A model generated the notes under the pieces. The model worked only from the letters and a program-made list of their open reading frames with translations, did not search any database and was not told where the DNA came from. A DNA stretch of 64,000 nucleotides from Mycobacterium sp. (GTDB lineage Bacteria > Actinomycetota > Actinomycetes > Mycobacteriales > Mycobacteriaceae): positions 1,144 to 65,143 of the forward strand of contig JAVROT010000088.1 of the NCBI GenBank assembly GCA_032162605.1. Direction: 5' to 3'. Shown in pieces: positions 10,657 to 32,320 of this stretch. Made by a program: the position numbers and the translations under genes. The number at the start of each line of letters is the position of its first letter. Position 1 is the stretch's first letter.

Positions 10657-10679
10657 CTTTCCACATCTTGGAGGCAATC

Positions 10680-12023: not shown

Positions 12024-12040
12024 GCAAGAGGAGTAGCCCG

Positions 12041-12715
12041 ATGACCCGATTCGTCGACCTGACCCACGGCTTCTACGACGGAATGCCGTCCTACCCCGCC
12101 GACTGGTTTCCGAAGTTCGCCAGCGAGCGCACGATGACCCCGGAGACCGACCCTTACGGCACCAAGCGCACGTTCTCCTATCTGCACGTGTTTCCGCACA
12201 ACGGAACGCACATGGAGTACCGGCTGCATTTCTTCCCCGGGGCGGAGGGGATTGACGAGGTGCCGCTGCACACCCTGATCGGCCGCGCCTGCGTCGCCGA
12301 CCTGTCCGACAAGGGCGAGCTGGAACCGGTCACCGGCGAGGACCTTGAGCGGACGCTGCGCCCGGTGTGGCGGGAGGGTGACCGGCTGCTGGTTCGCACC
12401 GACTACCTGCGGAACAACTGGGGCCGCCCCGACTACTGGGACGTGCCGCCCTACCTGACGCCGTCAGCCGCGGAATGGGCCATCGACAACGGCGCCAGCC
12501 TGTTCGGTCTGGACTGCCTCACCGAGCGGCCCGGCGACGCCGAGTCTCCCGTGCACCACGCGCTGCTGGCGGCCGGCATCCCGCTGCTGGAGTACGTCAC
12601 CAACATGCACGAGCTCACCAGGTCGGTCGTTCAGCTCGTTGCGCTGCCCATGAAGGTGGCCGGCGCCGAGGCGGCTCCCACCAGGGTCATCGCCATGGAG
12701 GACACCGATGACTGA
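12041..12715 (+). CDS. cyclase-family protein (kynurenine formamidase-like metal hydrolase)
   Basis: HNGTHMEYRLH motif (compare HxGTHxDxPxH), plus GLDCLTERPGD and VHHALLAAGIPLLEY. Confidence 0.8.
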   Translation: MTRFVDLTHGFYDGMPSYPADWFPKFASERTMTPETDPYGTKRTFSYLHVFPHNGTHMEYRLHFFPGAEGIDEVPLHTLIGRACVADLSDKGELEPVTGEDLERTLRPVWREGDRLLVRTDYLRNNWGRPDYWDVPPYLTPSAAEWAIDNGASLFGLDCLTERPGDAESPVHHALLAAGIPLLEYVTNMHELTRSVVQLVALPMKVAGAEAAPTRVIAMEDTDD

Positions 12716-15259: not shown

Positions 15260-15858
15260 TCTGCGTCATCGACAACTACGACTCGTTCGTATACAACCTC
15301 GTGCAGTACGCGGGAGATCTCGGCGAGGAGTGTGTCGTATACCGCAACGACGAGGTAACCGTCCAACGGGTGGCCGACCTTGCTCCCGACTTGATCCTCA
15401 TCTCGCCGGGTCCCGGTGATCCGGCCGATGCAGGCATCTCCATCAAGCTGATCCAGCGGCTGGGCCACGACTTCCCGATTTTCGGAGTATGTCTCGGCCA
15501 CCAAGCGATCGGCGCCGCGTTCGGCGCCCGGATCCGGCACGCCGCCGCGCCGATGCACGGTAAGTGCTCGGAGATCAGGCACGACGGAATGGGCGTCTTC
15601 GCGGGACTGCGGAACCCGCTGACGGTTGCGCGCTACCACTCCCTGGTGATCGAGGCCGACACGCTGCCGGCCGAACTGGTGGCGACCGCCTGGTCGCGGG
15701 AAGGCGAGATCATGGGGGTTCGGCACCGGACACTGCCGATCGAGGGTGTGCAGTTCCACCCCGAGTCGCTGTTCACCGAACAGGGCGTCGACATCGTCGG
15801 AAATGCGGTGCGTGGCATCCGCAGCCGGCTGGCCGCGGAGGGGGTGGGGGCCGCATGA
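15256..15858 (+). CDS. glutamine amidotransferase, component II (TrpG/PabA-like)
   Basis: MICVIDNYDSFVYNL, GVCLGHQAIG (catalytic Cys), VQFHPES. ATGA overlap with component I. Confidence 0.9.
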   Translation: MICVIDNYDSFVYNLVQYAGDLGEECVVYRNDEVTVQRVADLAPDLILISPGPGDPADAGISIKLIQRLGHDFPIFGVCLGHQAIGAAFGARIRHAAAPMHGKCSEIRHDGMGVFAGLRNPLTVARYHSLVIEADTLPAELVATAWSREGEIMGVRHRTLPIEGVQFHPESLFTEQGVDIVGNAVRGIRSRLAAEGVGAA

Positions 15859-16691
15859 ACGCCGACCGGCTGCTGGCCCGTCTTCGATCACTCGACGGTG
15901 TGGCCGTCGCGTTTTCCGGTGGTGTCGACTCCACCCTGGTGCTGGCCGCAGCGTTGCGGGCGCTGCCGGCGAACCGGGTGCTGGCGGTGATCGCCGACTC
16001 GCCCAGCCTCGCCCGCACCGAACTCGTCGACGCGCGGCACGTTGCCGCCGATCTGGGCGCGGAGCTGGTCGAAGTGCGGGTCGCCGAGCTCGAGATTCCC
16101 GGCTACCGTGCGAATGCGGGCAACCGCTGCTATTTCTGCAAACACACCGTGCTGAGCGCCGTCAGCGAACTCGCGGTCCGGCGGGGTATCGCGCACGTGG
16201 CCACCGGTACGCATGCCGACGACCATCGGGCCGTGCACCGACCCGGTCTGCGTGCCGCCCGTGAACTGCACGTGGTCGAACCACTGGCCGATGCCGGGCT
16301 CGGCAAGCGCGAGATCCGGATGCTGGCGGCCGCGTGGTCGTTGCCCGTCGCCGACAAGCCGGCGACGCCGTGCCTGGCCTCGCGTATCGCGGTGGGAGTA
16401 CCCGTCTCCATCGGTCGGCTTGGCCTGGTGGAGCGCGCCGAGATCGCGGTGCGAGCGCGGCTGGCCGGTGTCGGCGTGCAACCGCGTGATCTCCGAGTTC
16501 GGTTGCTCGGCGATGGATTTGCCATTGAGCTGGACCGGACGACGCACGCCGCGATGGAGATGTTGCCGGGGTTCACTGCCGAGGTTCTCGCTGCTTTGAA
16601 TGGCCTCGGCCTGACCGGCGCCGGACGGGTGGGGACATACCGCTCTCCCACACTCGCGCCTCCCATCGGTGACACCGCGGTCACTTCGTGA
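15855..16691 (+). CDS. larE: LarE-type PP-loop ATP-dependent sulfur transferase
   Basis: AFSGGVDSTL PP-loop. CYFCK plus PCLASR gives three Cys in total. ATGA overlap with the amidotransferase gene. Confidence 0.85.
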   Translation: MNADRLLARLRSLDGVAVAFSGGVDSTLVLAAALRALPANRVLAVIADSPSLARTELVDARHVAADLGAELVEVRVAELEIPGYRANAGNRCYFCKHTVLSAVSELAVRRGIAHVATGTHADDHRAVHRPGLRAARELHVVEPLADAGLGKREIRMLAAAWSLPVADKPATPCLASRIAVGVPVSIGRLGLVERAEIAVRARLAGVGVQPRDLRVRLLGDGFAIELDRTTHAAMEMLPGFTAEVLAALNGLGLTGAGRVGTYRSPTLAPPIGDTAVTS

Positions 16692-16737
16692 GATCGTCAG
16701 CGAGACACCGGTGCCCCGCACAGCTGAAGGCGGAACC

Positions 16738-17436
16738 ATGACCAGGTCCTCAGAGCCCGATGACCGTTGGAAGCCCGACGAGGCGCTGACCGCCTTCGCC
16801 GACCTCGATGTCGACCGTGCAGCCCGACGCGGTTATCCGGAGGCGGTGTACTGCCGGGGCAAGACGGCCGAGCAGGTCCGGCTCATCGCCGGTGCGCTGC
16901 GCGGCCACCGAGCGCGCACGTTGTTCACCCGGGCGAGCCCGGAGCAGGCCGCAGCGATTCTCGGCGAGCTGCCCGACGCCTTCCACGACGCAGCCAGCGG
17001 GCTGCTGGCGTGGCCGCCCGACCCGCCGGATCCGGTCGGTGGGCAGGTCCTCGTCGTGGCTGCGGGCACGGCCGACCATCCCGTCGCGCGGGAGGCCCTG
17101 CTCACCGCCCGGCACCTGGGCCGCAGCGCCGATCTGATCATGGACGTCGGCGTCGCCGGCCTGCACAGAGTGCTGCGGAGGCTTGACGCGCTCCGTTCGG
17201 CCAGGGTGATCGTCGTGGTGGCGGGTATGGACGGAGCACTGCCCGGGGTGGTCGCCGGACTGGTCGCGGCGCCGGTGGTGGCGGTGCCGACGTCGACCGG
17301 GTACGGCGCGGCGTTCGAGGGCCTGGCGCCACTGTTGACGATGCTCAACAGTTGCGCGCCCGGGGTAGCCGTGGTGAACATCGACAACGGTTACGGCGCA
17401 GGCCACCTTGCCGCTCAGATAGCTGCACCATCCTGA
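16738..17436 (+). CDS. larB: LarB-type nickel-pincer cofactor biosynthesis protein (AIR-carboxylase-like NaAD carboxylase/hydrolase)
   Basis: VVAAGTADHPVAREA, VAGLHR, VVAGMDGALPGVVAGL, VVAVPTSTGYG and NIDNGYGAG. The GTG at 16669 is an alternative start. Confidence 0.85.
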   Translation: MTRSSEPDDRWKPDEALTAFADLDVDRAARRGYPEAVYCRGKTAEQVRLIAGALRGHRARTLFTRASPEQAAAILGELPDAFHDAASGLLAWPPDPPDPVGGQVLVVAAGTADHPVAREALLTARHLGRSADLIMDVGVAGLHRVLRRLDALRSARVIVVVAGMDGALPGVVAGLVAAPVVAVPTSTGYGAAFEGLAPLLTMLNSCAPGVAVVNIDNGYGAGHLAAQIAAPS

Positions 17437-18668
17437 TCGCGAGGCTCGCCCGACCATGGCGCGCCGGGACGGAGCATCGCGGCGTCGGCGGCCGCGATCG
17501 CCTCGTCGAGCACCTGCCGCACCGGTAAGTCGCGGGCCCGGGCCACGGCCGCGGCGTCGTCGAACTCCGGGGTTGCGTGCACGATGCGTCCGGCCCGCAC
17601 CGCCACCTTGATCCGCACCTCGCCGCCGCGCAGCGCGACGGCCCGCCAGCCTCGGTCCAGGGCCACGCGGGACACCGGATACTCCCGTACGCCGATCGTC
17701 GAAGTCAACGCAAAGACGTTGTCGCGCAGTTCTGCCCGCTCGGCGTCCCGGGCGAGCACGCATAGCGTGTGCGCTGGCCGACCCTTCTTCATCACGATCG
17801 GCACCAGCCACGCGTCGGCGGCTCCCGACTCGAGCAGTGCGGCCAGCACCGTCGGCCATACCCGCGGATCCAGGTCGTCGACGTTTGTCTCCAGTACCCA
17901 CATGCCGTCGGCCGTCGGCACATCGGCGATGGGAATGCCGAGGGCCACGCGGACCACGTTGGCCCGCCCCGGGACGTCACGCCCACCCGCGCCCACTCCC
18001 ACCGCGGTGATCTCCATCGGTCCAATCGACCCGCACTCGTTTGCCAGTGCACGGATCAGAGCCATGCCGGTAGGCGTGGCGAGCTCGCCCTCGCCACCCG
18101 CGAGGACACGCCAGCCTCTGGCGAGCTCGAGAACCGCGGGTGGTGGCACCGGCAGATCGCCGTGGGCTGAGCCGACCCGCCCGGAGCCCACCGCTACCGG
18201 GCTGGCCGTCACCCGTGTGACAGCGAGCTCGGCCAGCGCGGCGCACACGCCGACGATGTCGGCAATCGAGTCCCACGAACCCACCTCGTGGAAATGCACG
18301 TCATCGGGTGCGACTCCGTGCACCCGCCCCTCCGCGTCGGCAAGCCGTGCGAACGCCGCGAGCGCGGTGGTGCGCACCGCGCTGGGCAGCTCAGCGTCTT
18401 CGAGCATCGAACGGATGCGTGCCCACGAGCGGTGCGGATGATCCTCGGCACGACTCTCGACGTCAATCTTCAACGCGCGCAGGCCGGCTCGGTGCACTGT
18501 GCTCGTTCGTAGTGCGACCTCGCCGGGCACGACGGCGGACACTGCGGATTCGACCCGGTCGAGCGGGGCGCCGGCGTCGATCAATGCGCCCATCAACATG
18601 TCACCCGCGATGCCCGCGGTGGCGTCCACCCACAGGTGCAAGCCCGCACTGTGCCCCATGACCGCCAC
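17415..18668 (-). CDS. larC: LarC-type nickel insertion (cyclometallase) protein
   Basis: GIAGDMLMGALIDAG, FHEVGSWDSIADIVG and PTGMALI. The C-terminal domain carries KKGRPAHTL. It converges on larB with a 22-nt overlap. The ATG at 18659 is an alternative start. Confidence 0.85.
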   Translation of the reverse strand: MAVMGHSAGLHLWVDATAGIAGDMLMGALIDAGAPLDRVESAVSAVVPGEVALRTSTVHRAGLRALKIDVESRAEDHPHRSWARIRSMLEDAELPSAVRTTALAAFARLADAEGRVHGVAPDDVHFHEVGSWDSIADIVGVCAALAELAVTRVTASPVAVGSGRVGSAHGDLPVPPPAVLELARGWRVLAGGEGELATPTGMALIRALANECGSIGPMEITAVGVGAGGRDVPGRANVVRVALGIPIADVPTADGMWVLETNVDDLDPRVWPTVLAALLESGAADAWLVPIVMKKGRPAHTLCVLARDAERAELRDNVFALTSTIGVREYPVSRVALDRGWRAVALRGGEVRIKVAVRAGRIVHATPEFDDAAAVARARDLPVRQVLDEAIAAADAAMLRPGAPWSGEPRDQDGAAI

Positions 18669-18776
18669 GCTATGCCGTCGACCCGGCCGCGGTGATGACA
18701 GTCGCTAATTCGGTTGTGCCGCAGGATGTTCAGTGCCGAACCTGAGGCAGCCGCAGCACATCGAACGAGCCCGGTG

Positions 18777-18870
18777 CTTACCCCACGGATAGGAAAACCT
18801 TCCCATCGACACGTGGAATCTGGCTTCCCGGCGATTACGCGAGCACGTCGCGATCACCACCATTTCAGTC
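18777..18870 (+). promoter_or_regulatory. conserved ~95-nt leader element, copy B (upstream of the ligase operon; within the divergent larC intergenic region)
   Basis: Aligns with 9270..9364. Palindrome GATAGGAAAACCTTCCCATC at 18788..18807. Same CGATCAC box. Ends at the ligase ATG (18871). Confidence 0.7.
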
Positions 18871-20544
18871 ATGACCCCGTACACACACAAGACGGTCCTG
18901 ACCCCGGAACTGAGGGCCAAGGTGGCCGCGGACTCCGGCATCGGCGGCGGCAACCTGCTGCACTCGATGCTCGCCATCAACCCGTATCCGGATGAGCCGT
19001 TCATCCACTCGCTGACTCCGGTGCCCTACACCGACGGTGAGACGCGGACCGAGTTCAGCCTCCGCGACCTCGACCACCTGGTCCAGAGCTGGTCGGTGTG
19101 GTACCAGGCGCAAGGCGTGCGGCCGAAAGACCGGGTCGCGATCTTTCTGCCCGACTCCATCGCATATTTCGTGCACTACTCGGCCATCGCCCAGCTCGGC
19201 GCCATCGCCGTGCTCATCAACTGGAAGGCGCCGCGGGAGAGTGCGATCGCGTTGTGCGAGCGGACCGGCGCGATCGGCCTGTACACCGATCTGGAGCGAT
19301 TGGACCGGATCGGGCCCGATCTGGACAAGCTGGCGCTGCGGTGGATCAGGACCATCGAAGAGATGCCGAGTCCGGCTTCGGCGACGCTGAGCGACGAGGC
19401 ACGGTTTAGGCATCATCCCGAGGACCCGGTGGGAATGATGCACTCGTCGGGCACGACGGGCCTGCCCAAGCCGGTCATCCACACCCACCGCACGATTCTG
19501 GAGGGTCCCAAGTTCCGTGCCGTCGACTACAAGGAGGAACCCGACGCACTGATCATGACCGCGCTTCCGCAGTCGCATCAGGGCACCATCTCGTTCACCT
19601 CCTACGCGGTCCTGACCGGACAGCCGTTGCTGGCCTGGCGGGATGTCACCGGCGAGGAGCTGGCGGCGGCCATCCCGGAGCACCAGCCGACGATGGTGAT
19701 GGCCTTCGGCCATGCCTACCCCGAGCTCGCCGCGCTGGAGACTCCTACCGGCGCCCTCGACTCAGTGAACATCTGGGTCTCCATGGGGGATGCCGTGCAC
19801 GAGCGGCACCTGAAGAACGTCCTCGCGCGCCGCTCTGCAGACCTCCCACCAGCTGCCTTCCTCGACCGCCTTGGCACCACCGAGCTGGGATGGGGCGTCT
19901 TGATGCATCCACGCACCCTGGCGACCCAGCGCAACGACCGCTGCGTCGGCCGCTCGGTCGGCTTCGCAGAGGTCGCCATCCTTCGGCCGAACGGCACTCT
20001 CGCCGCACCGTACGAGTGCGGGTTCCTCGGGGCGAAACCACCGTCCATGACCGTGGGGTACTGGGGCAACCAGGAGACCTATTACCGGAGCATCCTCGCC
20101 GGTTACTGGCTGACCGGCGACGTCGCCTTTCGCGACGACGACGGCTACTTCTACCAGGTCGACCGCGCGGTCGACGTGGTGCACACCGCGCAGGGGCCCG
20201 GCTACTCGGTGCAGATGGAGGAGCTGGTCCTCAACGAGGTCGTCGGCGTCGAGGACTGCACGGTCGTCGCCGGCGGATATCGAAACGAGACGGTGGCCGT
20301 CGCCGTGGTGACTGGAGCGGACATCGACCCGGAAAAGGTGCTGTCAGCGGCCAATGATGCGTTGCGCGCGACCGGGAAGCCGGAATTGGCCATGGTCGAG
20401 GTCGCGAACGCCGACGGCGACTTCCCACTCGGCGTCACTGGTAAGTCGCTCAAGCGCTACCTGCGCGAGAAGTACGAGGACCTCGTCGTCTACCTCGGCG
20501 ATCACCAAAGCAAAAACCTCGCCACGAGCCCTGCGCTCGCCTAA
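18871..20544 (+). CDS. ANL-superfamily AMP-forming ligase (CreM-like diazotase candidate or acyl/aryl-CoA ligase)
   Basis: MHSSGTTGLPKPVIHTHRT (A3), GTTELG (A5), GDVAFRDDDGYFYQVDR (A8), GVTGKSLKR (A10 Lys). Confidence 0.85.
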   Translation: MTPYTHKTVLTPELRAKVAADSGIGGGNLLHSMLAINPYPDEPFIHSLTPVPYTDGETRTEFSLRDLDHLVQSWSVWYQAQGVRPKDRVAIFLPDSIAYFVHYSAIAQLGAIAVLINWKAPRESAIALCERTGAIGLYTDLERLDRIGPDLDKLALRWIRTIEEMPSPASATLSDEARFRHHPEDPVGMMHSSGTTGLPKPVIHTHRTILEGPKFRAVDYKEEPDALIMTALPQSHQGTISFTSYAVLTGQPLLAWRDVTGEELAAAIPEHQPTMVMAFGHAYPELAALETPTGALDSVNIWVSMGDAVHERHLKNVLARRSADLPPAAFLDRLGTTELGWGVLMHPRTLATQRNDRCVGRSVGFAEVAILRPNGTLAAPYECGFLGAKPPSMTVGYWGNQETYYRSILAGYWLTGDVAFRDDDGYFYQVDRAVDVVHTAQGPGYSVQMEELVLNEVVGVEDCTVVAGGYRNETVAVAVVTGADIDPEKVLSAANDALRATGKPELAMVEVANADGDFPLGVTGKSLKRYLREKYEDLVVYLGDHQSKNLATSPALA

Positions 20545-20561
20545 TTCGATTGGGAACCGCC

Positions 20562-21596
20562 ATGACTACATCAGACATTCTGCTCGTCTTCGACAAGACC
20601 GTTACCCCCGCCGGCGTCGAGGGATGGATGCGGCACCTGGAATCTGCCAACGCACCCACCGATGTGTACCGGCTCGGCACCACTCACGTCCTGTCGGTAT
20701 CCGATGTGGACCTCATCCACCGGGGGGGGCCGGTGCTTCCCGAGCCCACCCACCAGGTGCTGTGGAACACCGACGTCTGGTTGGGGCGCAGGGAACTGCG
20801 CCCCGGCGGGACAGTGGTTTCCTTCGGCACGACCACGATCGGCGACGGTTCCGTCGCGGTCATCGCCGGACCGTGCGCGGTCGAATCTCCCGAGCAAACG
20901 CACGCCACCGCGGCCTTCGTCGCCGAACACGGCGCCGTCGGCCTGCGGGGTGGCGTCTTCAAACCGCGGACCTCGCCGCATTCCTTCCAGGGCCTGCAGT
21001 GGGACGGCCTTGACCTGCTTGCCGAAGCCGGGGAGCGGACCGGCCTACCCGTCGTCACCGAGGTGGTCGACCCGGAGCACGTCAAGCGGCTGGCCGCGGT
21101 GGTCGACGGGTTCCAGATCGGGGCCAGAAACATGCAGAACTTCGCGCTGCTGACCGCGGTGGGTCAGAGCGGCCTGCCGGTCGTGCTCAAGCGCGGCTTC
21201 GGCTGCACCATGGAGGAAACACTCGCCGCGGCCGAGTATCTGCTGGTCGAGGGCAACGACCAGGTGGTGCTGTGCGAGCGGGGGATCCGCACGTTCGAAC
21301 CGTCGGCGCGCTTCACGCTGGACCTCACCGCGGTCGCGCTGTGGAAACAGCGCACCCACCTGCCGGTGATGGTGGATCCCAGCCATTCCGGTGGCCTGCC
21401 CGAACTCGTGGAACCGCTGTCGCTGGCCGCGGTCGCGGCCGGCGCGGACGCGCTACTGATCGACGTCCACGTTGCGCCGGAGAAGGCGTTGTGCGACGGC
21501 AACCAGGCACTTCGCCCACAACAGTTCGCCGACTTGATGACCCGGCTCGCCCCGATGGTGGCCGGACTCGGCCGCCACATGAGCAGCGGCGGGTAG
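20562..21596 (+). CDS. 3-deoxy-7-phosphoheptulonate (DAHP) synthase, type I-beta, with an N-terminal ferredoxin-like domain
   Basis: VIAGPCAVES, GGVFKPRTSPHSFQG, IGARNMQNF, KRG and VDPSH. About 75 extra N-terminal residues precede the barrel, as in regulated Thermotoga-type enzymes. Confidence 0.85.
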   Translation: MTTSDILLVFDKTVTPAGVEGWMRHLESANAPTDVYRLGTTHVLSVSDVDLIHRGGPVLPEPTHQVLWNTDVWLGRRELRPGGTVVSFGTTTIGDGSVAVIAGPCAVESPEQTHATAAFVAEHGAVGLRGGVFKPRTSPHSFQGLQWDGLDLLAEAGERTGLPVVTEVVDPEHVKRLAAVVDGFQIGARNMQNFALLTAVGQSGLPVVLKRGFGCTMEETLAAAEYLLVEGNDQVVLCERGIRTFEPSARFTLDLTAVALWKQRTHLPVMVDPSHSGGLPELVEPLSLAAVAAGADALLIDVHVAPEKALCDGNQALRPQQFADLMTRLAPMVAGLGRHMSSGG

Positions 21597-21608
21597 GGCA
21601 GTGACCCC

Positions 21609-23594
21609 ATGTCCACTGAGAAGCTACAGCTGGCAATCGTCGGATTCGGCCCACGCGGCTTGTCGGTCGCGGAACGCCTCTGCGCCAACGTCGAGTCGCT
21701 CCTGCCGGACGGTCGGGAACTCGTCATCCACCTCGTCGACCCGTACGTGTTCGAGGGCGGCCAGGTATGGCGAAGCACGCAGGACCAGGCGCTGTTGATG
21801 AACACGGTGGCCTGCCAGGTAACCATGTTCGTCGACGACACCGTCGACTGTGCCGGGCCGGTGGTGAGCGGGCCGAGCCTCTACGAGTGGGCCCGCTCGA
21901 TCGCCCTGATCGGCATCCCGAACGTACCGGAGGCGGTTCGCGCCGAAGCCGCCACGCTCGGGCCGGACGATTATCCGTCTCGGGCGTTCTACGGGAGTTA
22001 CCTGCAGTGGACGCGCGACCGGATCATCTGGTCGGCGCCCCCGGCGGTCAGCTTCATCTCGCACCAGGCGACCGCCGCCGACGTTCGGGATACCGCGCCT
22101 GGTTTGCAGGAAGTCGTACTGGACTCCGGGGAGACCATCGGCAATCTGGACGCCGTGGTGCTCGCGCTCGGTCACATGCCGCATCGTCTCGGCAAGTCCG
22201 AGGCGGCCCTCGGCCAGTTCGCCGACCTGCACGGCCTGCGGTATGTCGCACCGAGCAACCCGGCCGACGTGCCACTGGACGCGATCGGAGCGGGTGAGTT
22301 GGTGATCTTGCGCGGCATGGGCCTCAACTTCTTCGACTACATGGCGCTGTTGACCATCGGTCGTGGTGGCACGTTCACGCGCGAACTCGGCGGCACCCTG
22401 AGCTACCTGCCGTCGGGTCGGGAACCGCGCCTGGTTGCGGGATCACGGCGTGGAGTGCCCTACCAGGCTCGCGGCAAGAATCAGAAGGGGCCGTCCGGCA
22501 GGCACGAGCCGCGGTACCTGACCGCCGAGGTGATCGAGCGGCTGCGAGCCCGCGCCGACGCCGGGGTACCCGCAGGCTTCCGGCGGGACATCTGGCCGAT
22601 GATCGACCAGGAAGTCCGCACGGTGTACTACGCGACGCTGGTGCGGGAGCGTCGCTGCACCTGCGACGCCGAGGAGTTCACCGCCCTGTTCGCCGCGGCG
22701 GAGCGCGCGCTGGTGCCGACCCTCGGAGATCCTCTGGCCATCCAGGAGAGCGACGCCCAGCGCACCGTGCTCAGCAAGTTCGACATCTATCCCGACGAAA
22801 GCTGGGACTGGCGCAAGATCGCGGCGCCGTTCGTCGACGACGATCTCCGCTCGACCCAGAGCTTCCGCAGCTGGCTGCGGTCCTATCTGGACAGTGAAGT
22901 CCGGGAGGCCGGGAAGGGGAACGTGGCCGGTCCGCGCAAGGCCGCCCTGGATGTGCTGCGGGACCTGCGCAACGAGATCCGGTTGCTGGTCGACCACGGT
23001 GGCCTTTCCGGCGACTCCTACCGGGACGAACTGCAGCGTTGGTACATGCCGTTGAACGCCCACCTCTCCATCGGGCCACCGGCCGAACGCATCGAGCAGT
23101 TCGCCGCGCTGGTGGATGCCGGCGTGCTCGAGGTCCTCGGCCCGGACCTGCGCGTCGACTGCTCGGACGGACACTTCGTCGCGTACTCCCGAACCTGTCC
23201 CGACCTCACGGTGCGGGCTACCACGCTGATCGAGGCGCGCCTGCCGGAAGTCGACCTGCACCGGACGACAGATCCCCTGCTGCGGACGCTGCTGGACCGG
23301 GGCGAGTGCCAGCCGTACCGCATGCCGATCCGCGGCGGCGGTCAGTACGTGGCAGGTGGTGTCGCGGTCACCCGGCGGCCGTACCGGCTGCTCGACGCTG
23401 CAGATCGCCCGCACGCGCGGCGTTTCATGTTCGGCGTGCCCACCGAGTCGGTGCACTGGGTGACCGCGGCGGGCATCCGTCCCGGCGTCAACTCCGTGAT
23501 CCTCGGTGATGCGGACGCCATCGCCCGGTCCTGCCTGCGACCGCTGCTGCTCGCCGATGATCGCGGCGACCACCGGACCGAGACATCGGCGTGA
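21609..23594 (+). CDS. FAD/NAD(P)-binding protein (CreE/FzmM-like flavin N-oxygenase candidate)
   Basis: 661 aa. N-terminal LAIVGFGPRGLSVAERL dinucleotide-binding motif and a second GxG (ILRGMGLNFFD). The size and layout match the FAD-NAD(P)-binding family found next to fumarase-fold lyases. Confidence 0.7.
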   Translation: MSTEKLQLAIVGFGPRGLSVAERLCANVESLLPDGRELVIHLVDPYVFEGGQVWRSTQDQALLMNTVACQVTMFVDDTVDCAGPVVSGPSLYEWARSIALIGIPNVPEAVRAEAATLGPDDYPSRAFYGSYLQWTRDRIIWSAPPAVSFISHQATAADVRDTAPGLQEVVLDSGETIGNLDAVVLALGHMPHRLGKSEAALGQFADLHGLRYVAPSNPADVPLDAIGAGELVILRGMGLNFFDYMALLTIGRGGTFTRELGGTLSYLPSGREPRLVAGSRRGVPYQARGKNQKGPSGRHEPRYLTAEVIERLRARADAGVPAGFRRDIWPMIDQEVRTVYYATLVRERRCTCDAEEFTALFAAAERALVPTLGDPLAIQESDAQRTVLSKFDIYPDESWDWRKIAAPFVDDDLRSTQSFRSWLRSYLDSEVREAGKGNVAGPRKAALDVLRDLRNEIRLLVDHGGLSGDSYRDELQRWYMPLNAHLSIGPPAERIEQFAALVDAGVLEVLGPDLRVDCSDGHFVAYSRTCPDLTVRATTLIEARLPEVDLHRTTDPLLRTLLDRGECQPYRMPIRGGGQYVAGGVAVTRRPYRLLDAADRPHARRFMFGVPTESVHWVTAAGIRPGVNSVILGDADAIARSCLRPLLLADDRGDHRTETSA

Positions 23595-23667
23595 CCGCCC
23601 GAAGGCGACCGCGAGTGAGGATCGCAGCGAGGGACGAGCGAGGACCGGAGCGAGTGGGAGCGGAGGC

Positions 23668-25065
23668 ATGACTATGGACTATGGAATTCTGGCGCCCGCA
23701 TGGGCGGCGACGGGAGCGGCTGACCTCGTCGACGACAACGCATTGCTGACAGCCATGCTCGCTACGGAAGTCGCCCTGGCCGAGGCGCAGGCCGAGTTGG
23801 GCGTGATTCCGGCCGGCGCAGCGAAGGCGATCAGGGTCGCCGCCGTGCCCGCCGCCATCGACCTTGCAGTGGTGGCTGCGGGAGTGCGGGAGACGGCCAA
23901 CCCCGTCGTATCGTTCGTCGAGCAGCTCACCGCTGCGGTCCGGTCCGTCGACACGTCCGCCGCCGAGTATGTACACCGCGGCAGCACCAGCCAGGACATC
24001 CTGGACACCGCACTGACCCTGCTGTGCGCGGCGACGCTGAACCGAATCGAAAGCGACCTACTGGCGTGCGCCGACAGCCTGGCTGGACACGCCGATCGAC
24101 ATCGCGCGACACCGATGGCCGGGCGCACCCTGACCCAGCACGCCGTGCCCGTCACCTTCGGGCTGAAGGCGGCCACCTGGCTGCATCTGGTGCTCGACGC
24201 CGTGGAGCGGGTGCGCCGGACCCGCGCGGCGCTGCCGGTCTCGCTGGGCGGCGCGGCGGGCACGCTTGCCGCATACCACCAGTACGCGGTCGACACCGGC
24301 GATCCGGTTGACGCGACGCTGCGCTTGCCCGAGTTGGTGGCCCGTCGCCTTGGGCTGGCCGAGCCGACCCTTCCCTGGCACGGCATTCGCACGCCCCTGG
24401 CCGACGTTGCTGCGAGCTTGATGGTCACCACCGGAGCGCTCGGCAAGCTGGCCGCCGACGTCCTGGTGCTCACCCGGACCGAGATCGGGGAGGTCACCGA
24501 GGAACCGGCGCCGGGACGGGGCGCGTCCTCGGCCATGCCGCAGAAGCACAACCCGGTGTTCTCGACGCTCGTCGCGACCGCGGCCCGCCAGCTGCCACCG
24601 ATCGCCCTCGTGCTGTTCGGTTCCATGGCCGTGGAGGACGAGCGGTCTTCGGGTGGGTGGCATGCCGAGTGGCAACCTCTGCGGGAGTGCCTGCGCATCG
24701 GTGCCGGTGCCGCCGCCAATGCCGCTCACCTCGCGGCATCGCTTCGGGTCTCACCCGAGGCGATGGCGGCGAACCTGCGGCTGACCCGTGGCGCCATCGT
24801 CTCCGAGCGCGTCAACGTGGTTCTGGCGCCGTTGCTCGGCAAGGCCAAGGCCAAACAACTGCTGACCGAGGTGACCGCGGCGGCCGAGCGGGACGGTGCC
24901 GACGTCGCCGACCTGCTCGCGGTCGCGCTTGAGGAGGCCGGAGTAGCTGTCCCCAACGTGCCGGGACTGTTCGATCCGTCCGGCTACACCGGGGTGTCCG
25001 GTCCGCTGGTCGACCGGGCGCTCCAGCGTTTCGACGATGTCTTGAAGGAGATCTCCCATGGCTGA
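23668..25065 (+). CDS. fumarase/aspartase-superfamily lyase (CreD-like nitrosuccinate lyase candidate; PcaB/PurB-like)
   Basis: GSTSQDILDT, GRTLTQHAVPVTFG and the signature GASSAMPQKHNP. GGAGG lies just upstream of the ATG at 23668. Confidence 0.8.
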   Translation: MTMDYGILAPAWAATGAADLVDDNALLTAMLATEVALAEAQAELGVIPAGAAKAIRVAAVPAAIDLAVVAAGVRETANPVVSFVEQLTAAVRSVDTSAAEYVHRGSTSQDILDTALTLLCAATLNRIESDLLACADSLAGHADRHRATPMAGRTLTQHAVPVTFGLKAATWLHLVLDAVERVRRTRAALPVSLGGAAGTLAAYHQYAVDTGDPVDATLRLPELVARRLGLAEPTLPWHGIRTPLADVAASLMVTTGALGKLAADVLVLTRTEIGEVTEEPAPGRGASSAMPQKHNPVFSTLVATAARQLPPIALVLFGSMAVEDERSSGGWHAEWQPLRECLRIGAGAAANAAHLAASLRVSPEAMAANLRLTRGAIVSERVNVVLAPLLGKAKAKQLLTEVTAAAERDGADVADLLAVALEEAGVAVPNVPGLFDPSGYTGVSGPLVDRALQRFDDVLKEISHG

Positions 25066-26198
25066 TGTCGCCCCGCTGGAGTTCGACTGGCAGCGTGCAC
25101 GGCCGATCCCGGCCAGGCGGCGGGCAGAACTGCTCGCGCTGCCGGGGTTCGGCGACACCTACTCCGATCACATGGTGACCGTGCGGTGGAATGCCGAGCT
25201 GGGCTGGCACGACGCCGGGATCGGCCCGCTTGCCGCGTTCGCACTGCACCCCGCCACCATGGCGTTGCACTACGGCCAGACGGTTTTCGAGGGCTTGAAG
25301 GCCTTCTGGCGCCCCAACGGTCACCGGGCCTTGTTCCGGCCCGTCGACCATGCCCGCCGATTCGCCCGCTCGGCGCGCCGGATGGCCATGCCCACGCTGC
25401 CCGAGCAGGACTTCGTCGCGGCATTGGAGGCGCTGCTGCGGGCCGACGGTGACTGGGTACCTCGCACTCGAGGACACAGCTTCTATCTGCGGCCGTTCAT
25501 GATTGCGTCGGAGGCGCAGCTGGGCAACCGCCCCGCCGAGGAGTACCTGTTCGCCGTGATCGGCGGCCCGGCACGGCCCCCATCCGCGGAGCCGAAGCCG
25601 ATGCGGTTGTGGGCAGCCACCGAGTACATCCGTGCGGCGCCGGGCGGTACCGGTGCGGCCAAGTGTGGCGGCAACTACGGCGGCTCCTACATCGCCCAGC
25701 GACAGGCCGCGGCCAACGACTGCGACCAAGTCGTGTGGCTGGACGCGCGGGAGCGCCGGTACATCGAGGAAGCGGGCGGTTCCAACCTGTTCTTCGTGGA
25801 GTCGACCACCGAAGGCCCCCGCCTGCGCACGCCTCCGTTGAGCGGAACCCTGCTGGCGGGCGTCACCCGGGACACGATCCTGCGGTTGGCGGGACGACTC
25901 GGTTACCCGGTCGCCGAGGAGCCGCTCACGCTCGACGAGTGGGAGCAAGGGCTGCCGAGACGGGCGTATCACCGAGACCTTCGCGTGTGGCACCGCCCGG
26001 GCCATTGCCCCGGTCGGGCACGTGGTCTCCGCGCAGCGGGACTGGCCGGTGGGGGACGGCACTGCGGGGCCGGTCACGTCGCGGCTGCTGAAGGCATTAC
26101 TCGACATCCATTGCGGCCAGACTCCAGACGAATTCGGCTGGATACGTCTCGTCGACACCTACGGCGAGGCCTCCACACCCCGCCTCGAGGAGGGATGA
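25058..26198 (+). pseudogene. class IV (IlvE-like) aminotransferase, frameshifted near 25946-25968
   Basis: Frame 1 gives DHMVTVRW, FEGLKAF, YLRPF, GGTGAAKCGGNY ... DEWEQG. The conserved C-terminus ITETFACGTARAIAPVGHV...GWIRLV is in the +1 frame and ends at the TGA at 26196..26198. Confidence 0.75.
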
Positions 26199-26201
26199 TC
26201 C

Positions 26202-26810
26202 ATGTCCACGACTCCCAAGGTCGACTTCTACTTCGACCCGGCCTGCCCCTTCGCCTGGATCGCCTCCCGGTGGATTCTCGAGGTGGAACACAGGCGGAAA
26301 ATCGATCTGCGGTTCCGGGTGATGAGCGTGTCCGTGCTCAACGAGGATCGGGAGATCTCCGAGTGGTACCGGGACTTCTGCGACCGTGCGTGGGGGCCCG
26401 CGCGGGTCTGCATCGCCGCCACCCAGCACCATGGCGAGGAGGCGCTGCGTCACCTCTACACCGCGCTCGGCACCCGAATCCACAACGGGCGCAACAAGAA
26501 CTACCCGGAGGTGGTCGGGCAGGCCCTCGCCGAGGTGGGCCTGCCAGCCGAGCTCGCCGAAGCGGCTGACGGGACCGACTACGACGAGGTCCTGCGCAAG
26601 AGCCACGCGGCGGCGCTGGAACCCGTCGGTGCGGATGTCGGCACCCCGACGATCCACATCGACGGCATCGGGTTCTTCGGGCCGGTGCTGACCGCCATAC
26701 CGCGGGGCGTCGAGGCGGCACGCCTTTTCGACAGCGCCAGGACGCTGGCCGCCAACCCTCATTTCTTCGAGCTGAAGCGGGCTCGCTCCGGCGACCTGAA
26801 CTACGACTGA
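26202..26810 (+). CDS. DsbA-family oxidoreductase, Rv2466c-like (mycothiol-dependent reductase family)
   Basis: [53 protein letters not shown] and PHFFELKR. Collinear with M. tuberculosis Rv2466c as I recall it. Confidence 0.85.
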
Positions 26811-26828
26811 CAGAACGGACGTGTGCAC

Positions 26829-28085
26829 ATGAAACGTATCGGGATTGTGGAGTCGAACCGCTCCGGATCCGGGTTCGACACCTTACGGGCGGCCAGGAAG
26901 CTGGGTTTGCACGTCACCTTCTTCAGCTGCGGGCTGGATCGCTACCACGCGACGCCCGGTGGCACGGAGGTATTGCGCACCTGCGTCGACGAGGTCGTTT
27001 CCTGTCCGACCCACGAGCTGGCGCCGTTGCTGGCGGCGGTGAAGGAGGTCGACGCCACGCATCCGCTCGACGCGTTGCTCTCGGTCGCCGAGTACGAGGT
27101 GGTTCAGACCGCCGAGGTCGCCCGCCAGCTCGGCCTGCCCGGCCCGGATCCGGACGCCGTCCGGATCGCGCGCAACAAGGCCGACCAACGACGGCGCTGG
27201 GCCGAACGCGGCGTGCCCATCCCGGCATTTCGCGCCGTGACCACGGCTGAGCAGGCGGCGCGGGCCGCCGAGGAGATCGGGCTGCCGTGCGTGGTCAAGC
27301 CCGTCGACGAGACCAGCGGGGCGAATGTCGTCCGGTGCACGACCGTGCCCGAGGTGATCGACGCCTTCTCGGCGGTGCGGTCCGAACCGACCAACCGCCG
27401 CGGTCAGCCCCGCCATCCAGAGGTGCTCGTCGAGGAATGCCTGGTCGGCTTCGAGGTCAGCGTGGAGGTTCTGGCCGAGGCCGGATCCGTCCGCGTGCTC
27501 GGGGTGACCGACAAGCTGGTCGGGGGCGGCAACCGGTTCATCGAGCTCGGACACAGCTTCCCGACGGCACTGCCTGCACGGATTCGGGACGAGCTGGAAC
27601 AGGCCGCGGTGGCCGCGACCATGGCGGTGGGCTTCGACCTCGGCATCGCGCACGTCGAGCTCAAGTACACCGCCACGGGTCCCACGCTGATCGAGATCAA
27701 TCCACGGCCGGCCGGTGACCAGATCACCGAGCTGATGGACCGCAGCCTCGGGCTGTCCACCATGGAGCTGTTGATTCGCCAGTACCTTGGCGAGTTCGTC
27801 GGCGCCATCGAAGCGGATCCGGTACGGGGCGCGGCGATCCGGTACCTCACCGCACCTGCCGGTGTCGTGAGCAGCGTGACCGGATTGGAGATCGCCGCTG
27901 CCGTGCCCGGGATCTGCGAGGCCGTGGTGTCCATCGAGCCCGGTGGGCGGATCAACCCGTTGCGGGTGAACGAGGACCGGATCGGCCACGTCCTGGCCAC
28001 CGCCGACGATCCATACCTGGCCGGCCGGATCGCCGAGGCCGCGGCCCAGCAAATCGAGGTGCGAGTCCTAGGAGTAGCGACATGA
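26829..28085 (+). CDS. ATP-grasp domain protein (carboxylate-amine / L-amino-acid ligase type)
   Basis: KADQRRRWAERGVP, GLPCVVKPVDETSGANV, LVEECLVGFEVSVE, AHVELKYT and LIEINPRPAGD. Confidence 0.8.
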   Translation: MKRIGIVESNRSGSGFDTLRAARKLGLHVTFFSCGLDRYHATPGGTEVLRTCVDEVVSCPTHELAPLLAAVKEVDATHPLDALLSVAEYEVVQTAEVARQLGLPGPDPDAVRIARNKADQRRRWAERGVPIPAFRAVTTAEQAARAAEEIGLPCVVKPVDETSGANVVRCTTVPEVIDAFSAVRSEPTNRRGQPRHPEVLVEECLVGFEVSVEVLAEAGSVRVLGVTDKLVGGGNRFIELGHSFPTALPARIRDELEQAAVAATMAVGFDLGIAHVELKYTATGPTLIEINPRPAGDQITELMDRSLGLSTMELLIRQYLGEFVGAIEADPVRGAAIRYLTAPAGVVSSVTGLEIAAAVPGICEAVVSIEPGGRINPLRVNEDRIGHVLATADDPYLAGRIAEAAAQQIEVRVLGVAT

Positions 28086-32244: not shown

Positions 32245-32320
32245 GCCGCGTTAGCTCAGTTGGTAGAGCGTCGCTCTTGTAAAGCGGATGTCGAGAGTTC
32301 GAATCTCTCACGCGGCTCCA
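32245..32320 (+). tRNA. tRNA-Thr (anticodon UGU), CCA encoded
   Basis: Manual cloverleaf: acceptor GCCGCGT/ACGCGGC, D-arm GCTC-AGTTGGTA-GAGC, anticodon arm TCGCT-CTTGTAA-AGCGG, variable ATGTC, T-arm GAGAG-TTCGAAT-CTCTC, discriminator T, then CCA. Confidence 0.95.

Follow-up and report, generated by a model that had tools for sequence, protein, structure and literature searches.

A conserved actinobacterial gene cluster in a mycobacterium-like genome, with probable formation of nitrite from aspartate and ATP-dependent N–N bond formation on an aromatic amine

Genes resembling those of an aspartate N-hydroxylase, a nitrosuccinate lyase and an AMP-forming ANL enzyme lie side by side in the window, that is, the whole stretch of 64,000 nucleotides of mycobacterial DNA analyzed here, and they raise the question of whether nitrite is made and used at this locus, and on what substrate. 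An actinobacterial biosynthetic cluster of 18 genes, conserved and shared horizontally, is present in full in the window (9397–29314, Table 1), its sole defect being a single-base frameshift in the gene for the aminotransferase. The host genome is mycobacterium-like and the cluster of an antibiotic type, with nitrite predicted to be made from aspartate and an N–N bond probably formed on an aromatic amine via an ATP-dependent enzyme. Chemistry of this kind is known; the cluster and its product are undescribed, and no paper on this cluster type was found in the literature searched.

Table 1. Features of the cluster, in positions of the window, with the principal evidence for each assignment.
Feature	Coordinates	Strand	Evidence
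MFS transporter, putative exporter	9397–10656	+	NCBIfam MFS and tetracycline-efflux-like matches
451-aa protein, weakly glutathionylspermidine-synthetase-like (pre-ATP-grasp), putative third amide ligase	10668–12023	+	Pfam GSP_synth 26.6 bits, below cut-off
Cyclase-family (PF04199) metal hydrolase	12041–12715	+	Pfam Cyclase 91.6 bits
DUF362 protein, LarA (lactate racemase) fold	12708–13889	+	Pfam DUF362 113 bits
TrpE/PabB-like chorismate-aminating enzyme (component I)	13886–15259	+	Chorismate_bind 282 bits
TrpG/PabA-like glutamine amidotransferase (component II)	15256–15858	+	GATase 188 bits
LarE, sulfur transferase for nickel-pincer cofactor	15855–16691	+	TIGR00268 237 bits, cut-off 150
LarB, nickel-pincer cofactor biosynthesis	16669–17436	+	NF033503 270 bits, cut-off 175
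LarC, nickel insertion; divergent from ANL operon	17415–18668	-	PF01969 436 bits
Divergent intergenic region larC/ANL operon, 202 nt	18669–18870	.	Presumed promoter region
ANL-superfamily enzyme, putative nitrite-activating (type I diazotase/N-nitrosylase) group	18871–20544	+	557 aa, PF00501
Type I-beta DAHP synthase, shikimate pathway entry	20550–21596	+	PRK08673 388 bits, cut-off 335
Predicted CreE/FzmM-type L-aspartate N-hydroxylase (nitrosuccinate synthase)	21609–23594	+	661 aa, similarity to 8CP2
Predicted CreD/FzmL-type nitrosuccinate lyase (nitrite and fumarate release)	23668–25065	+	465 aa, fumarase fold
Branched-chain-type (fold IV) aminotransferase, frameshifted	25058–26198	+	PRK13357 322 bits
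Rv2466c-like DsbA-fold (mycothiol-dependent reductase family) protein	26202–26810	+	PF22234 286.7 bits
ATP-grasp L-amino-acid-ligase-type enzyme 1	26823–28085	+	LAL_C2 77.5 bits, ATP-grasp_4, ATPgrasp_N
ATP-grasp L-amino-acid-ligase-type enzyme 2, final operon gene	28082–29314	+	LAL_C2 53.9 bits, ATP-grasp_4

All of the reading frames that a preliminary description had placed on the forward strand at 18871–25065 are present, and both the lengths that it gave for the flavoprotein and the lyase and the gap between them were confirmed. The ANL, DAHP synthase, flavoprotein and lyase genes are separated by 5, 12, and 73 nt, and the last of them overlaps the aminotransferase gene by 8 nt. The DAHP synthase gene, positioned between those of the ANL enzyme and the flavoprotein, is absent from the text of that description. 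The order ANL–DAHPS–CreE–CreD–aminotransferase was found again at more than 12 loci of various genera, so the arrangement is conserved and not a chance juxtaposition.

The flavoprotein, which starts with MSTEKLQLAIVGFGPRGLSVAERL and matches PF13454, shares 55% identity over its entire length with the crystallized L-aspartate N-hydroxylase of Streptomyces sp. V2 (8CP2; 640 bits over residues 6–644, E 3e-191). All 11 of the catalytic and entry-chamber residues named for aspartate N-hydroxylase (PMC10404684) are kept (R16, N65, R288, R298, R451, R454, N455, R458, R624, R640, and R644), and the CreE/FzmM assignment proposed earlier holds on both counts. Sequence-level tests thus support a reaction in which L-aspartate would be converted to nitrosuccinate with FAD, NADPH and O2. 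The lyase, read from ATG 23668 to its stop at 25065 and containing GASSAMPQKHNP, is 55.5% identical to CreD (5XNY), scoring 431 bits against it vs. 256 bits against PcaB; the NCBIfam models give 534 bits for nitrosuccinate lyase, below the Streptomyces cut-off of 650, and 360 for PcaB. It retains the whole nitrosuccinate lyase fingerprint (PMC13411527), E49/H118/D125/H253/R341 (also given as E34/H103/D110/H238/R326), and likewise S287, S288, K293, and N295, which agrees with its earlier placement as CreD/FzmL; the large score margin favoring CreD speaks against a true PcaB or PurB. Tests of the same kind support the splitting of nitrosuccinate into nitrite and fumarate as its predicted reaction. 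A longer reading of the lyase, from GTG 23506, was rejected, since it adds only an Arg/Pro-rich stretch without CreD homology.

The highest-scoring NCBIfam model for the ANL enzyme is the AvaA6 diazotase (337 bits), followed by the best ligase model at 159, although 337 bits is far below the AvaA6 equivalog cut-off of 975. The top structural match, the unpublished 9XB8, is 60% identical (720 bits), and the next nearest solved relatives, CmaA6 (267 bits) and Tri17 (8TF7/9BQ0, 255 bits), outscore all acyl-CoA ligases of the PDB by ~170 bits (FadD13, 92 bits). The ANL enzyme is ~33% identical to the diazotase CmaA6 and belongs to a distinct subfamily. Residues H236, F279, K525, and R216, invariant in the 24 aligned members of the ANL subfamily, correspond to H224, F267, K533, and R204 of CmaA6. 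Mutation of the His/Phe/Lys nitrite triad abolishes the activity of CmaA6; the Phe is conserved in AvaA6/CmaA6-type enzymes and not in CreM or Aha11, whereas the His and Lys also occur in ordinary ANL enzymes (PMC12207350) and therefore do not discriminate by themselves. R216 is the counterpart of the carboxylate-binding Arg of CmaA6, and in the substrate site Asn225 and Gln201 of CmaA6 are replaced by Gln237 and Pro213. Comparison at the sequence level supports the grouping of this enzyme with the nitrite-activating AvaA6/CmaA6/Tri17 enzymes and not with acyl-CoA ligases. The CreM/AvaA6 label given to it earlier stands as a likeness to AvaA6, CmaA6 and Tri17, seen in the family model, the structures and the kept nitrite-site residues, and falls short of AvaA6 equivalence; considered at the time the weakest link, the assignment is better supported than expected, also by the neighboring nitrite source. 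The enzyme would be expected to form AMP-nitrite from ATP and nitrite and to pass its nitroso group on to an amine. Most likely this amine is aromatic and carries a carboxylate, and a diazonium or diazo intermediate would result, as with CmaA6 and AvaA6.

The surroundings of related ANL genes bear on the same question. The ANL–DAHPS–CreE–CreD order is retained in Mycolicibacterium, Mycobacterium, Pseudonocardia, Geodermatophilus, Amycolatopsis, and metagenome loci, while in Microbispora the CreE/CreD slot is occupied by a NasC-type nitrate reductase, a NirB-like electron-transfer subunit and a NarK transporter, a replacement that argues independently for the use of nitrite by the ANL enzyme. 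The subfamily has a genomic tie to CreE/CreD or nitrate reductase as a source of nitrite, and the DAHP synthase gene beside ANL is conserved in both cluster types. CreE/CreD are present again in three PapABC-type metagenome loci; at three PapABC-type loci no nitrite source was found within 10 kb, and locus L011, with an ANL enzyme 82% identical, has no CreE, CreD, or Rv2466c-like gene. None of ~58 loci with generic ANL enzymes (23–28% identity, same scan) carries CreE, CreD, or NasC. An ANL clade of 41–43% identity is located in a 3-hydroxyanthranilate-type aryl-amine/type II PKS cluster.

An aryl-amine supply by the sister operon, as previously predicted, is plausible. One metagenome contig preserves the canonical order without a break between larE and TrpG and has larC–larB divergent immediately upstream, which places the sister-operon genes in the same cluster as the trio; in Amycolatopsis and metagenome relatives, too, the ANL operon is bordered by LarC, LarB, and LarE. 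The amine may come from chorismate, with the DAHP synthase raising precursor supply and the TrpE/TrpG-like pair carrying out the amination; the ATG of TrpG overlaps the stop of TrpE, and the start of LarE that of TrpG. The TrpE-like enzyme, which is under every NCBIfam equivalog cut-off and ties in the PDB between B. subtilis-type ADC synthase (218 bits) and TrpE (218), cannot be typed from its sequence as an anthranilate, ADIC, or ADC synthase. Its motif is PLAGT, with Ala, where PapA/PabB have PIKGT, with Lys; this substitution and the absence of PapB and PapC from the cluster suggest that the amine may be of an ortho-amino (anthranilate or 3-hydroxyanthranilate) and not a para type. In distant ANL relatives the amine-supply role is filled by PapA/PapB/PapC, makers of 4-aminophenylalanine, which makes a 4-aminophenyl amino acid the leading candidate substrate.

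The aminated product might then be processed by the cyclase-family hydrolase (refined start ATG 12041, preceded by GAGGAG) and the DUF362 protein, with a nickel-pincer cofactor from LarB/E/C. These two genes are always paired, also in the Streptomyces L018 and Brevibacillus L019 loci, both at 56–57% identity. In a Foldseek search with the AF2 model of DUF362 (pLDDT 87.9), the top 18 PDB matches are all LarA, malate racemase, or LarA-like (probability 1.00), and its invariant motif H146-x9-K156-x14-H171 resembles H174/K184/H200 of LarA1 (PMC11770544), making it a candidate nickel-pincer-cofactor enzyme. LarC scores above cut-off with both the LarC1 and LarC2 models, and LarB has an alternative ATG start at 16738. 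An amino acid could be formed next by the aminotransferase, and the Rv2466c-like oxidoreductase, whose orthologues in Streptomyces and metagenome clusters (62–69% identity) are immediate neighbors of ANL or PapABC genes, might reduce the diazonium to a hydrazine, dediazoniate or otherwise handle it, or protect the producer. Neither this gene, nor the aminotransferase frameshift, nor the link between LarA-like DUF362 and larBCE is mentioned in the preliminary description. Amino acids may be attached by the two L-amino-acid ligases and the GSP-synthetase-like protein. Ligase 1 is 85–94% identical in 9 of the 10 related loci holding it and 76% in L011; ligase 2, overlapping it by 4 nt, is 55% identical to that of Microbispora (L013). 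The 451-residue protein has homologues in Kutzneria (L017, 37% identity) and Streptomyces (L018, 32%), and its faint GSP_synth match recurs in the L021 and L103 orthologues. The MFS protein, 47–49% identical to that of the Microbispora cluster, might export a small peptide-like product; in relatives its gene comes after the second ATP-grasp gene.

We regard this explanation as a whole, from nitrite made from aspartate through nitrite activation by ANL and an amine from chorismate to ligation and export, as likely. The nitrite module could also serve a Tri17-type N-nitrosylase acting on a hydrazine, hydrazone, aliphatic or alpha-amine and leading to an N-nitroso, triazene, azide, or aliphatic diazo product: Tri17 scores nearly as high as CmaA6, the amine substrate is a candidate only, and the two substrate-site replacements would fit. 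Such a role appears unlikely, however, as no hydrazine-forming genes (cupin/MetRS-like, FzmN/O/P-type) were seen in the cluster, genes for aromatic-amine supply (PapABC, TrpE/G, or DAHPS) consistently accompany the subfamily, and the carboxylate-binding Arg is invariant among its members. Public annotations, including the 9XB8 title 'Fatty-acid-CoA ligase FadD', would instead make ANL and its relatives ordinary carboxylate-adenylating enzymes (aryl or amino-acyl CoA ligases or amide synthetases) feeding the peptide ligases, with CreE/CreD supplying nitrite or nitrosuccinate for a different enzyme, for a spontaneous reaction, or for nitration. The score under the AvaA6 cut-off and the L011 locus are in keeping with this, but the far lower similarity to true acyl-CoA ligases, the invariant Phe279 and the lack of a carrier protein or CoA-dependent partner in the cluster make it quite improbable, and the exchange of CreE/CreD for nitrate reductase and NarK in the same slot is hard to explain unless the operon centers on nitrite.

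Even if nitrite activation by ANL is accepted, the pathway may be impaired in this genome by the +1 frameshift at ~25947, where one extra A is present compared with four relatives. A tblastn search with the intact Geodermatophilus orthologue returned two frames only in the window, and the gene is intact in all 10 related loci holding it. The intergenic region upstream of ANL, which in Amycolatopsis and metagenome relatives holds a SARP regulator gene, contains none here, and neither an Rfam family nor a consensus sigma-70 site was found in it. A decaying remnant with a non-functional trio and no product is nevertheless very unlikely: the extra base might stem from an error in sequencing, housekeeping IlvE could stand in for the aminotransferase, the layout without SARP is common to the close mycobacterial relatives (L001, L002, and L004), and none of the remaining 17 genes is truncated, their catalytic residues being kept.

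The ANL enzyme, the FAD/NAD(P)-binding protein (flavoprotein) and the fumarase-fold lyase belong to a closely packed operon of eight genes on the + strand (18871–29314), listed in the table below. All of the open reading frames, the peptide strings quoted in the preliminary description and the 73-nt spacing between the flavoprotein and lyase genes are present in the sequence, and that account of the trio stands as given, except that it left out the DAHP synthase (DAHPS) gene located between the ANL enzyme and the flavoprotein. A second block of genes, running from MFS to TrpG, lies upstream (9397–15858) and is joined to larE-larB. The neighbors outside positions 9397 and 29314 are housekeeping genes. 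Rfam and consensus promoter/terminator scans of the cluster revealed no riboswitch and no convincing signal. A tRNA gene (32245–32317, + strand, Rfam 71 bits) is found approximately 3 kb downstream of the cluster, separated from it by a Ser/Thr kinase gene and a gene with an FHA domain; the G+C content is ~0.68–0.71 in the cluster and ~0.63 near this tRNA gene.

Genes of the operon carrying the ANL enzyme, the flavoprotein and the lyase, with window coordinates
Gene product	Position	Strand
ANL enzyme, 557 aa	18871-20544	+
DAHP synthase	20550-21596	+
FAD/NAD(P)-binding protein, 661 aa	21609-23594	+
Fumarase-fold lyase, 465 aa	23668-25065	+
Fold-IV aminotransferase	25058-26198	+
Rv2466c-like DsbA-fold protein, 202 aa	26202-26810	+
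ATP-grasp L-amino-acid-ligase-type gene 1	26823-28085	+
ATP-grasp L-amino-acid-ligase-type gene 2	28082-29314	+

The flavoprotein aligns with 8CP2 over residues 6–644 of 661 (E 3e-191, 640 bits, 55% identity), and 8CP2/8CP5 is its sole PDB match, even at E ≤ 10. The structure 8CP2 is that of the L-aspartate N-hydroxylase from Streptomyces sp. V2, the product of which is nitrosuccinate; the residues named for this enzyme are Arg13, Asn62 (catalytic), Arg266, Arg276, Arg409, Arg412, Asn413, Arg416, Arg577, Arg593, and Arg597, with an arginine cluster and Asn among them making up the aspartate entry chamber (PMC10404684). All 11 are identical in the window protein, which is firmly predicted to be a CreE-type enzyme oxidizing aspartate to nitrosuccinate. 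Its partner, the lyase, matches CreD (5XNY) with 431 bits and 55.5% identity, whereas PcaB, next in the PDB ranking, obtains 256 bits and the adenylosuccinate lyases (PurB) reach 114 at most. The best NCBIfam model is likewise the nitrosuccinate lyase (NF052556, 534 bits, compared to 360 for the PcaB model), although the score stays below the curated equivalog cut-off of 650; the short name of the model, NtrsucLyaStm, suggests that it was built on Streptomyces sequences. A fingerprint proposed for nitrite-handling members, E49/H118/D125/H253/R341, as well as the essential residues Ser302, Ser303, Lys308, and Asn310 of the loop SSxMPxKRNP, have been described (PMC13411527), and the window lyase keeps all of them as E34, H103, D110, H238, R326, S287, S288, K293, and N295. 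The numbering was anchored on the SS loop, and the mapping is considered valid since each checked position carries the residue type expected in CreD. The loop itself reads SSAMPQKHNP, with His at the position of Arg309. Because parts of the fingerprint are also present in PcaB (PMC13411527), it is supportive of a nitrosuccinate lyase, yet not exclusive. Assignment of the protein as PcaB or PurB, the check proposed at the outset, is ruled out by the score margins taken together with the fingerprint, and the protein is firmly predicted from its sequence to be a CreD-type lyase that would free nitrite from nitrosuccinate. The flavin N-oxygenase of CreE/FzmM type and the lyase of CreD/FzmL type named in the preliminary description are both upheld. 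CreD adjoins CreE not only in the window but also in 14 further loci that have both genes (L001, L002, L004, L006–L010, L020, L021, L025, L026, L029, and L057). A longer lyase of 519 aa, starting from GTG 23506, was considered and rejected, as the 54 residues thereby added are rich in Arg and Pro and show no alignment with CreD.

The ANL enzyme had been regarded as the weakest link of the trio. Among the NCBIfam models, the 3-aminoavenalumate diazotase AvaA6 (NF058622) ranks first with 337 bits, followed by a long-chain acyl-CoA ligase with 159 bits, and the PDB ranking is headed by 9XB8/9XBS (720 bits, ~60% identity), ahead of 8ZTZ/9IJF (267), Tri17 (255), and FadD13 (92). These margins place it in the nitrite-using group of ANL enzymes, as had been proposed. 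The score of 337 bits is, however, far under the NF058622 equivalog cut-off of 975, and the window enzyme, judged by its sequence, is not an AvaA6 orthologue and represents a separate subfamily, ~33% identical to CmaA6. The subfamily covers a range of 52–94% identity and has 9XB8 as its structural representative; the latter was deposited under the title ‘Fatty-acid-CoA ligase FadD’, a Microbispora protein is 92% identical to it, and a literature search by PDB code found no paper citing it. The entries 8ZTZ/9IJF are taken to be CmaA6, since the residue numbering of PMC12207350 fits the chain at 8/8 checked positions, and 8TF7/9BQ0 are taken to be Tri17 because the same paper lists 9BQ0 as Tri17, in an ATP-bound form.

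The nitrite site of CmaA6 consists of His224, Phe267, and Lys533, all of them essential, whereas Arg204 holds the carboxylate of the substrate (PMC12207350). The corresponding residues of the window enzyme, with the numbering offset validated at 8/8 checked positions, are His236, Phe279, Lys525, and Arg216, and they are invariant in 24 aligned members of the subfamily. The His and Lys of the nitrite site are also found in ordinary ANL enzymes, while Phe267 is kept in enzymes of the AvaA6/CmaA6 type and absent from CreM and Aha11, which are only ~21% identical to CmaA6 (PMC12207350). NybO, another member of the CreM clade, is 45.5% identical to CreM and only 21.5% to CmaA6 (PMC12836137); enzymes of that clade share in general 21–25% identity with the CmaA6/AvaA6 group. 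With ~33% identity to CmaA6 and the Phe267 position kept, the window enzyme is classified by sequence as AvaA6/CmaA6/Tri17-like, in a subfamily of its own that probably lies outside the CreM clade; this corrects the CreM-like label of the preliminary description. The gene is also tied to a nitrite source, as it shares its operon with CreE/CreD both in the window and in most close relatives, and none of the ~58 generic ANL loci from the same scan (23–28% identity) has CreE, CreD, or NasC. A clade of ANL genes with 41–43% identity is found in another aryl-amine context, together with PhzE-, PhzD-, and DhbA-like genes and type II PKS genes. Such 41–43%-identical genes, in a different (aryl-polyene-like) cluster, were the only ones present in the plasmid collection.

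In a scan of species-representative genomes, 12 loci were found with ANL enzymes 82–92% identical to that of the window, in Mycolicibacterium pyrenivorans, Mycobacterium spp., Pseudonocardia asaccharolytica, Geodermatophilus chilensis, Microlunatus, and uncultured Actinomycetota. These close relatives retain the gene order ANL-DAHPS-CreE-CreD-aminotransferase-(Rv2466c-like)-ligase-ligase-MFS. The full canonical layout is present in an Amycolatopsis genome and in a 78-kb metagenome contig, where larC-larB on the opposite strand is followed by larE-SARP-ANL-DAHPS-CreE-CreD-aminotransferase-Rv2466c-like-ligase1-ligase2-MFS-GSP-synthetase-like-cyclase-DUF362-TrpE-TrpG and then by unrelated genes. 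The window includes the same gene set minus the SARP regulator. With the MFS-to-TrpG block merely shifted upstream, the sister operon, credited earlier with the supply of an aryl amine, is thus part of the same cluster, and its pairing with the trio is borne out by both canonical loci.

More distant relatives provide additional variants. Genes for ANL enzymes with 52–60% identity directly follow PapB-PapA-PapC, the 4-aminophenylalanine route, in loci that share the DAHPS, Rv2466c-like, ligase, and MFS families with the window and in which PapA carries the lysine of a PIKGT motif. Three metagenome contigs have CreE/CreD downstream of PapBAC-ANL; two of them have DAHPS, CreE, and CreD that are 81–92% identical to those of the window, and so is the aminotransferase in one contig, L025. 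No nitrite source was detected within 10 kb in three loci of the PapABC type. In the Microbispora locus L013, which has a homologue of 9XB8, the slot after DAHPS that CreE/CreD take in the window is filled (12981–18097) by an assimilatory nitrate reductase of the NasC type (748 bits), a reductase subunit resembling the N-terminal part of NirB, and a NarK nitrate/nitrite transporter, which would seem to provide a secondary-metabolite cluster with nitrite by another route. The swap between CreE/CreD and a nitrate reductase backs the use of nitrite independently of sequence similarity. CreE and CreD, as well as the Rv2466c-like gene, are absent from L011, a locus in a metagenome-assembled genome with an ANL enzyme 82% identical to that of the window. 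This locus retains ANL, DAHPS, the aminotransferase, both ligases, MFS, a 451-aa protein, the cyclase, and DUF362, and carries upstream a large HAMP/GAF hybrid histidine kinase and response regulators.

The DUF362 protein (12708–13889, + strand) matches PF04015 only, and not Pfam DUF2088 (Lar_N); sequence-only PDB searches returned nothing for it or for the 451-aa protein, and only the fold search was informative. [quoted passage not shown] The model predicts a LarA fold. In its spacing, the invariant motif H146-x9-K156-x14-H171 resembles H174-x9-K184-x15-H200 of LarA1, in which Lys184 tethers the cofactor, His200 is a nickel ligand, and His174 is the catalytic histidine (PMC11770544). The same motif comparison gave no evident counterpart of LarA His108, and the DUF362 protein has four invariant Cys. 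DUF362 and DUF2088 share the Pfam clan CL0471, and a published study in which DUF362 served as an outgroup only assigned it no function (PMC11770544). The genes larE, larB, and larC (15855–18668) are complete and score above cut-off, larE and larB lying in the operon of DUF362 and larC adjacent to it; they adjoin the cluster also in the Amycolatopsis and metagenome relatives. These features mark DUF362 proteins as candidate users of the nickel-pincer cofactor and point to a step dependent on it in the making of a chorismate-derived building block. The cyclase–DUF362 pair recurs with DAHPS, ATP-grasp, aldehyde dehydrogenase, and MFS genes in Streptomyces sp. NBC_01435 (L018) and Brevibacillus ruminantium (L019), the latter locus continuing with TrpE and TrpG. 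Neither of these loci has ANL or CreE/CreD, nor lar genes within 10 kb. This distribution, which spans phyla, indicates that the cyclase–DUF362 pair moves on its own, as a module for a building block derived from chorismate.

In the proposed chemistry, the CreE-type protein would oxidize aspartate and the CreD-type lyase would then free nitrite, which the ANL enzyme would activate with ATP in order to N-nitrosate an amine bearing a carboxylate; we infer this last step with good support. As to the amine, a 4-aminophenyl amino acid is tentatively the leading candidate, because the aminotransferase co-occurs with PapABC in L025 and because the ANL, Rv2466c-like, ligase, and MFS proteins are orthologous across both types of cluster. 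PapB and PapC, however, were not found by tblastn in the window or in close relatives, and an ortho-amino substrate of the anthranilate or 3-hydroxyanthranilate type is the alternative. The TrpE-like enzyme of the window, in which the motif is PLAGT, scores equally as anthranilate synthase (TrpE) and as clade-2 ADC synthase; typing it as one or the other failed on these tied NCBIfam and PDB scores.

The Rv2466c-like protein, of the mycothiol-dependent nitroreductase family with the DsbA fold, has orthologues 62–69% identical in clusters from Streptomyces and metagenomes, where they adjoin ANL or PapABC genes; this suggests that the product of the diazotase undergoes a thiol-dependent reaction. 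It might convert a diazonium to a hydrazine, catalyze dediazoniation, or serve in self-protection. The AvaA7-type deamination step of the avenalumic acid pathway is one of two precedents; the other is NybC, which turns a diazo compound into a hydrazine by reduction (PMC12836137). The putative roles of this protein and of the three ligases are inferred from family membership and such precedent. We can speculate, while considering it rather unlikely, that the product is a peptide with an N–N-bonded or deaminated aromatic amino acid, the amine being made by the cyclase-family hydrolase and an NPN-using DUF362 protein instead of PapB/PapC, coupled to nitrite-dependent diazotization and to a mycothiol-type processing of the diazonium by the Rv2466c-like protein. 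If true, DUF362 would thereby gain its first function. To our knowledge, there is no earlier role of the LarB/C/E cofactor in secondary metabolism, and the one considered here, if true, would be the first.

Comparison with known systems shows both shared and distinct features. As in the aspartate-nitrosuccinate (ANS) pathways (CreE/CreD, FzmM/FzmL, NybB/NybA), the hydroxylase and lyase are adjacent with an ANL gene alongside, and each of the two is ~55% identical to a crystallized member, with all published substrate and catalytic residues kept; the differences are the Mycobacterium/Mycolicibacterium-like host in place of Streptomyces, the His for Arg309 in the SS loop, and the NCBIfam score of the lyase under cut-off. 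With the type I ANL diazotases AvaA6, CmaA6, and SpiA7, as well as the N-nitrosylase Tri17, the window shares the nitrite site, the carboxylate Arg, a nitrite source, and a supply of aromatic amine. Its subfamily is nevertheless accompanied by PapABC or TrpE/G-DUF362 and ATP-grasp ligases rather than by 3,4-AHBA/type II PKS aryl-polyene genes, and instead of an AvaA7-type partner it has the Rv2466c-like protein. The logic of the 2,4,3-DAHBA module of nybomycin, streptonigrin, and diazaquinomycin (NybA/B, NybO, NybC, NybN, NybD/E/F/F2; PMC12836137) also matches, from DAHPS, chorismate amination, and ANS to an ANL diazotase on a chorismate-derived aryl amine and then a diazo reductase; in place of PhzD-like, DhbA-like, SRPBCC (NybN), and NybC-like genes, however, the window has cyclase/DUF362/Lar genes, the Rv2466c-like protein, and peptide ligases. 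Unlike clusters for ATP-grasp dipeptide antibiotics (bacilysin BacD or dapdiamide DdaF type), it has no prephenate decarboxylase or anticapsin genes, and the literature searched gave no case of ATP-grasp dipeptide ligases combined with nitrite chemistry. The LarA superfamily (NPN 2-hydroxy-acid racemases with LarB/LarC/LarE) is similar in the presence of larB, larC, and larE, in the predicted fold, and in the His-Lys-His spacing, but the window protein belongs to DUF362 (PF04015) instead of DUF2088, has the four invariant Cys, and is located in a secondary-metabolite cluster.

Neither the ANS pathway nor the class of ATP-dependent diazotases is new. Within the literature that could be searched, the novel aspects are the architecture of the cluster, the distinct ANL subfamily, with its links to peptide ligases and to modules of the PapABC or TrpE/G-DUF362 kind, and the occurrence in mycobacteria; searches for ANS or diazotases with mycobacteria, aminophenylalanine, PapABC, or ATP-grasp returned no paper on this type of cluster, in agreement with the preliminary description, which knew of no mycobacterial example. 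A whole, portable cluster type is thereby recognized in Mycolicibacterium, Mycobacterium, Amycolatopsis, Pseudonocardia, Geodermatophilus, and many soil metagenomes, with its own subfamily of ATP-dependent diazotase-like enzymes; since a structure from this subfamily has been solved (9XB8, for which no publication was found), it may already be under study elsewhere. The comparative data yield candidate amines, either of the 4-aminophenylalanine type or the ortho-amino alternative, the replacement of CreE/CreD by a nitrate reductase amounts to a natural experiment, and the cluster connects the uncharacterized DUF362 family with the nickel-pincer cofactor. Biocatalysis and bio-orthogonal chemistry would benefit from an enzyme that forms a diazonium on an amino acid.

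Although Mycolicibacterium, Pseudonocardia, Geodermatophilus, and Microlunatus are genera of different orders, their cluster proteins are 80–94% identical (loci L001–L012 compared to the window), and a Mutator-family transposase is located upstream of the cluster in L007; both suggest that the cluster may have moved recently by horizontal transfer. In the window, the branched-chain-type aminotransferase gene has one extra A at ~25947 (GAGCAAGGGC, compared to GAGCAGGGC in relatives), splitting it into two frames, whereas it is intact, with ~370 aa, in all ten related loci that have the gene. The single extra A results in a mechanically called ORF of 503 aa, which was rejected as a fusion, its C-terminal 200 residues being an out-of-frame, Arg/Pro-rich nonsense tail. 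The frameshift may be a true inactivation (pseudogene) or a sequencing error.

Several related loci carry further genes. A gene of the isocitrate-lyase/PEP-mutase superfamily is inserted between the aminotransferase and the Rv2466c-like gene in L010 (14335–15186), L003 (17362–18228), and L007 (17255–18106). It matches PF13714 with 255 bits, as scored on the copy in L010, and true PEP mutase with 37 bits; with this poor latter score, and with no such gene in the window, it was dismissed as a sign of phosphonate synthesis and is considered accessory. In L103, the metagenome contig with the canonical cluster, the genes that come next (11442–14909) encode a terpene synthase, a SAM methyltransferase, and a cNMP-binding protein, a set that resembles the usual 2-methylisoborneol genes and that places the end of the cluster there.
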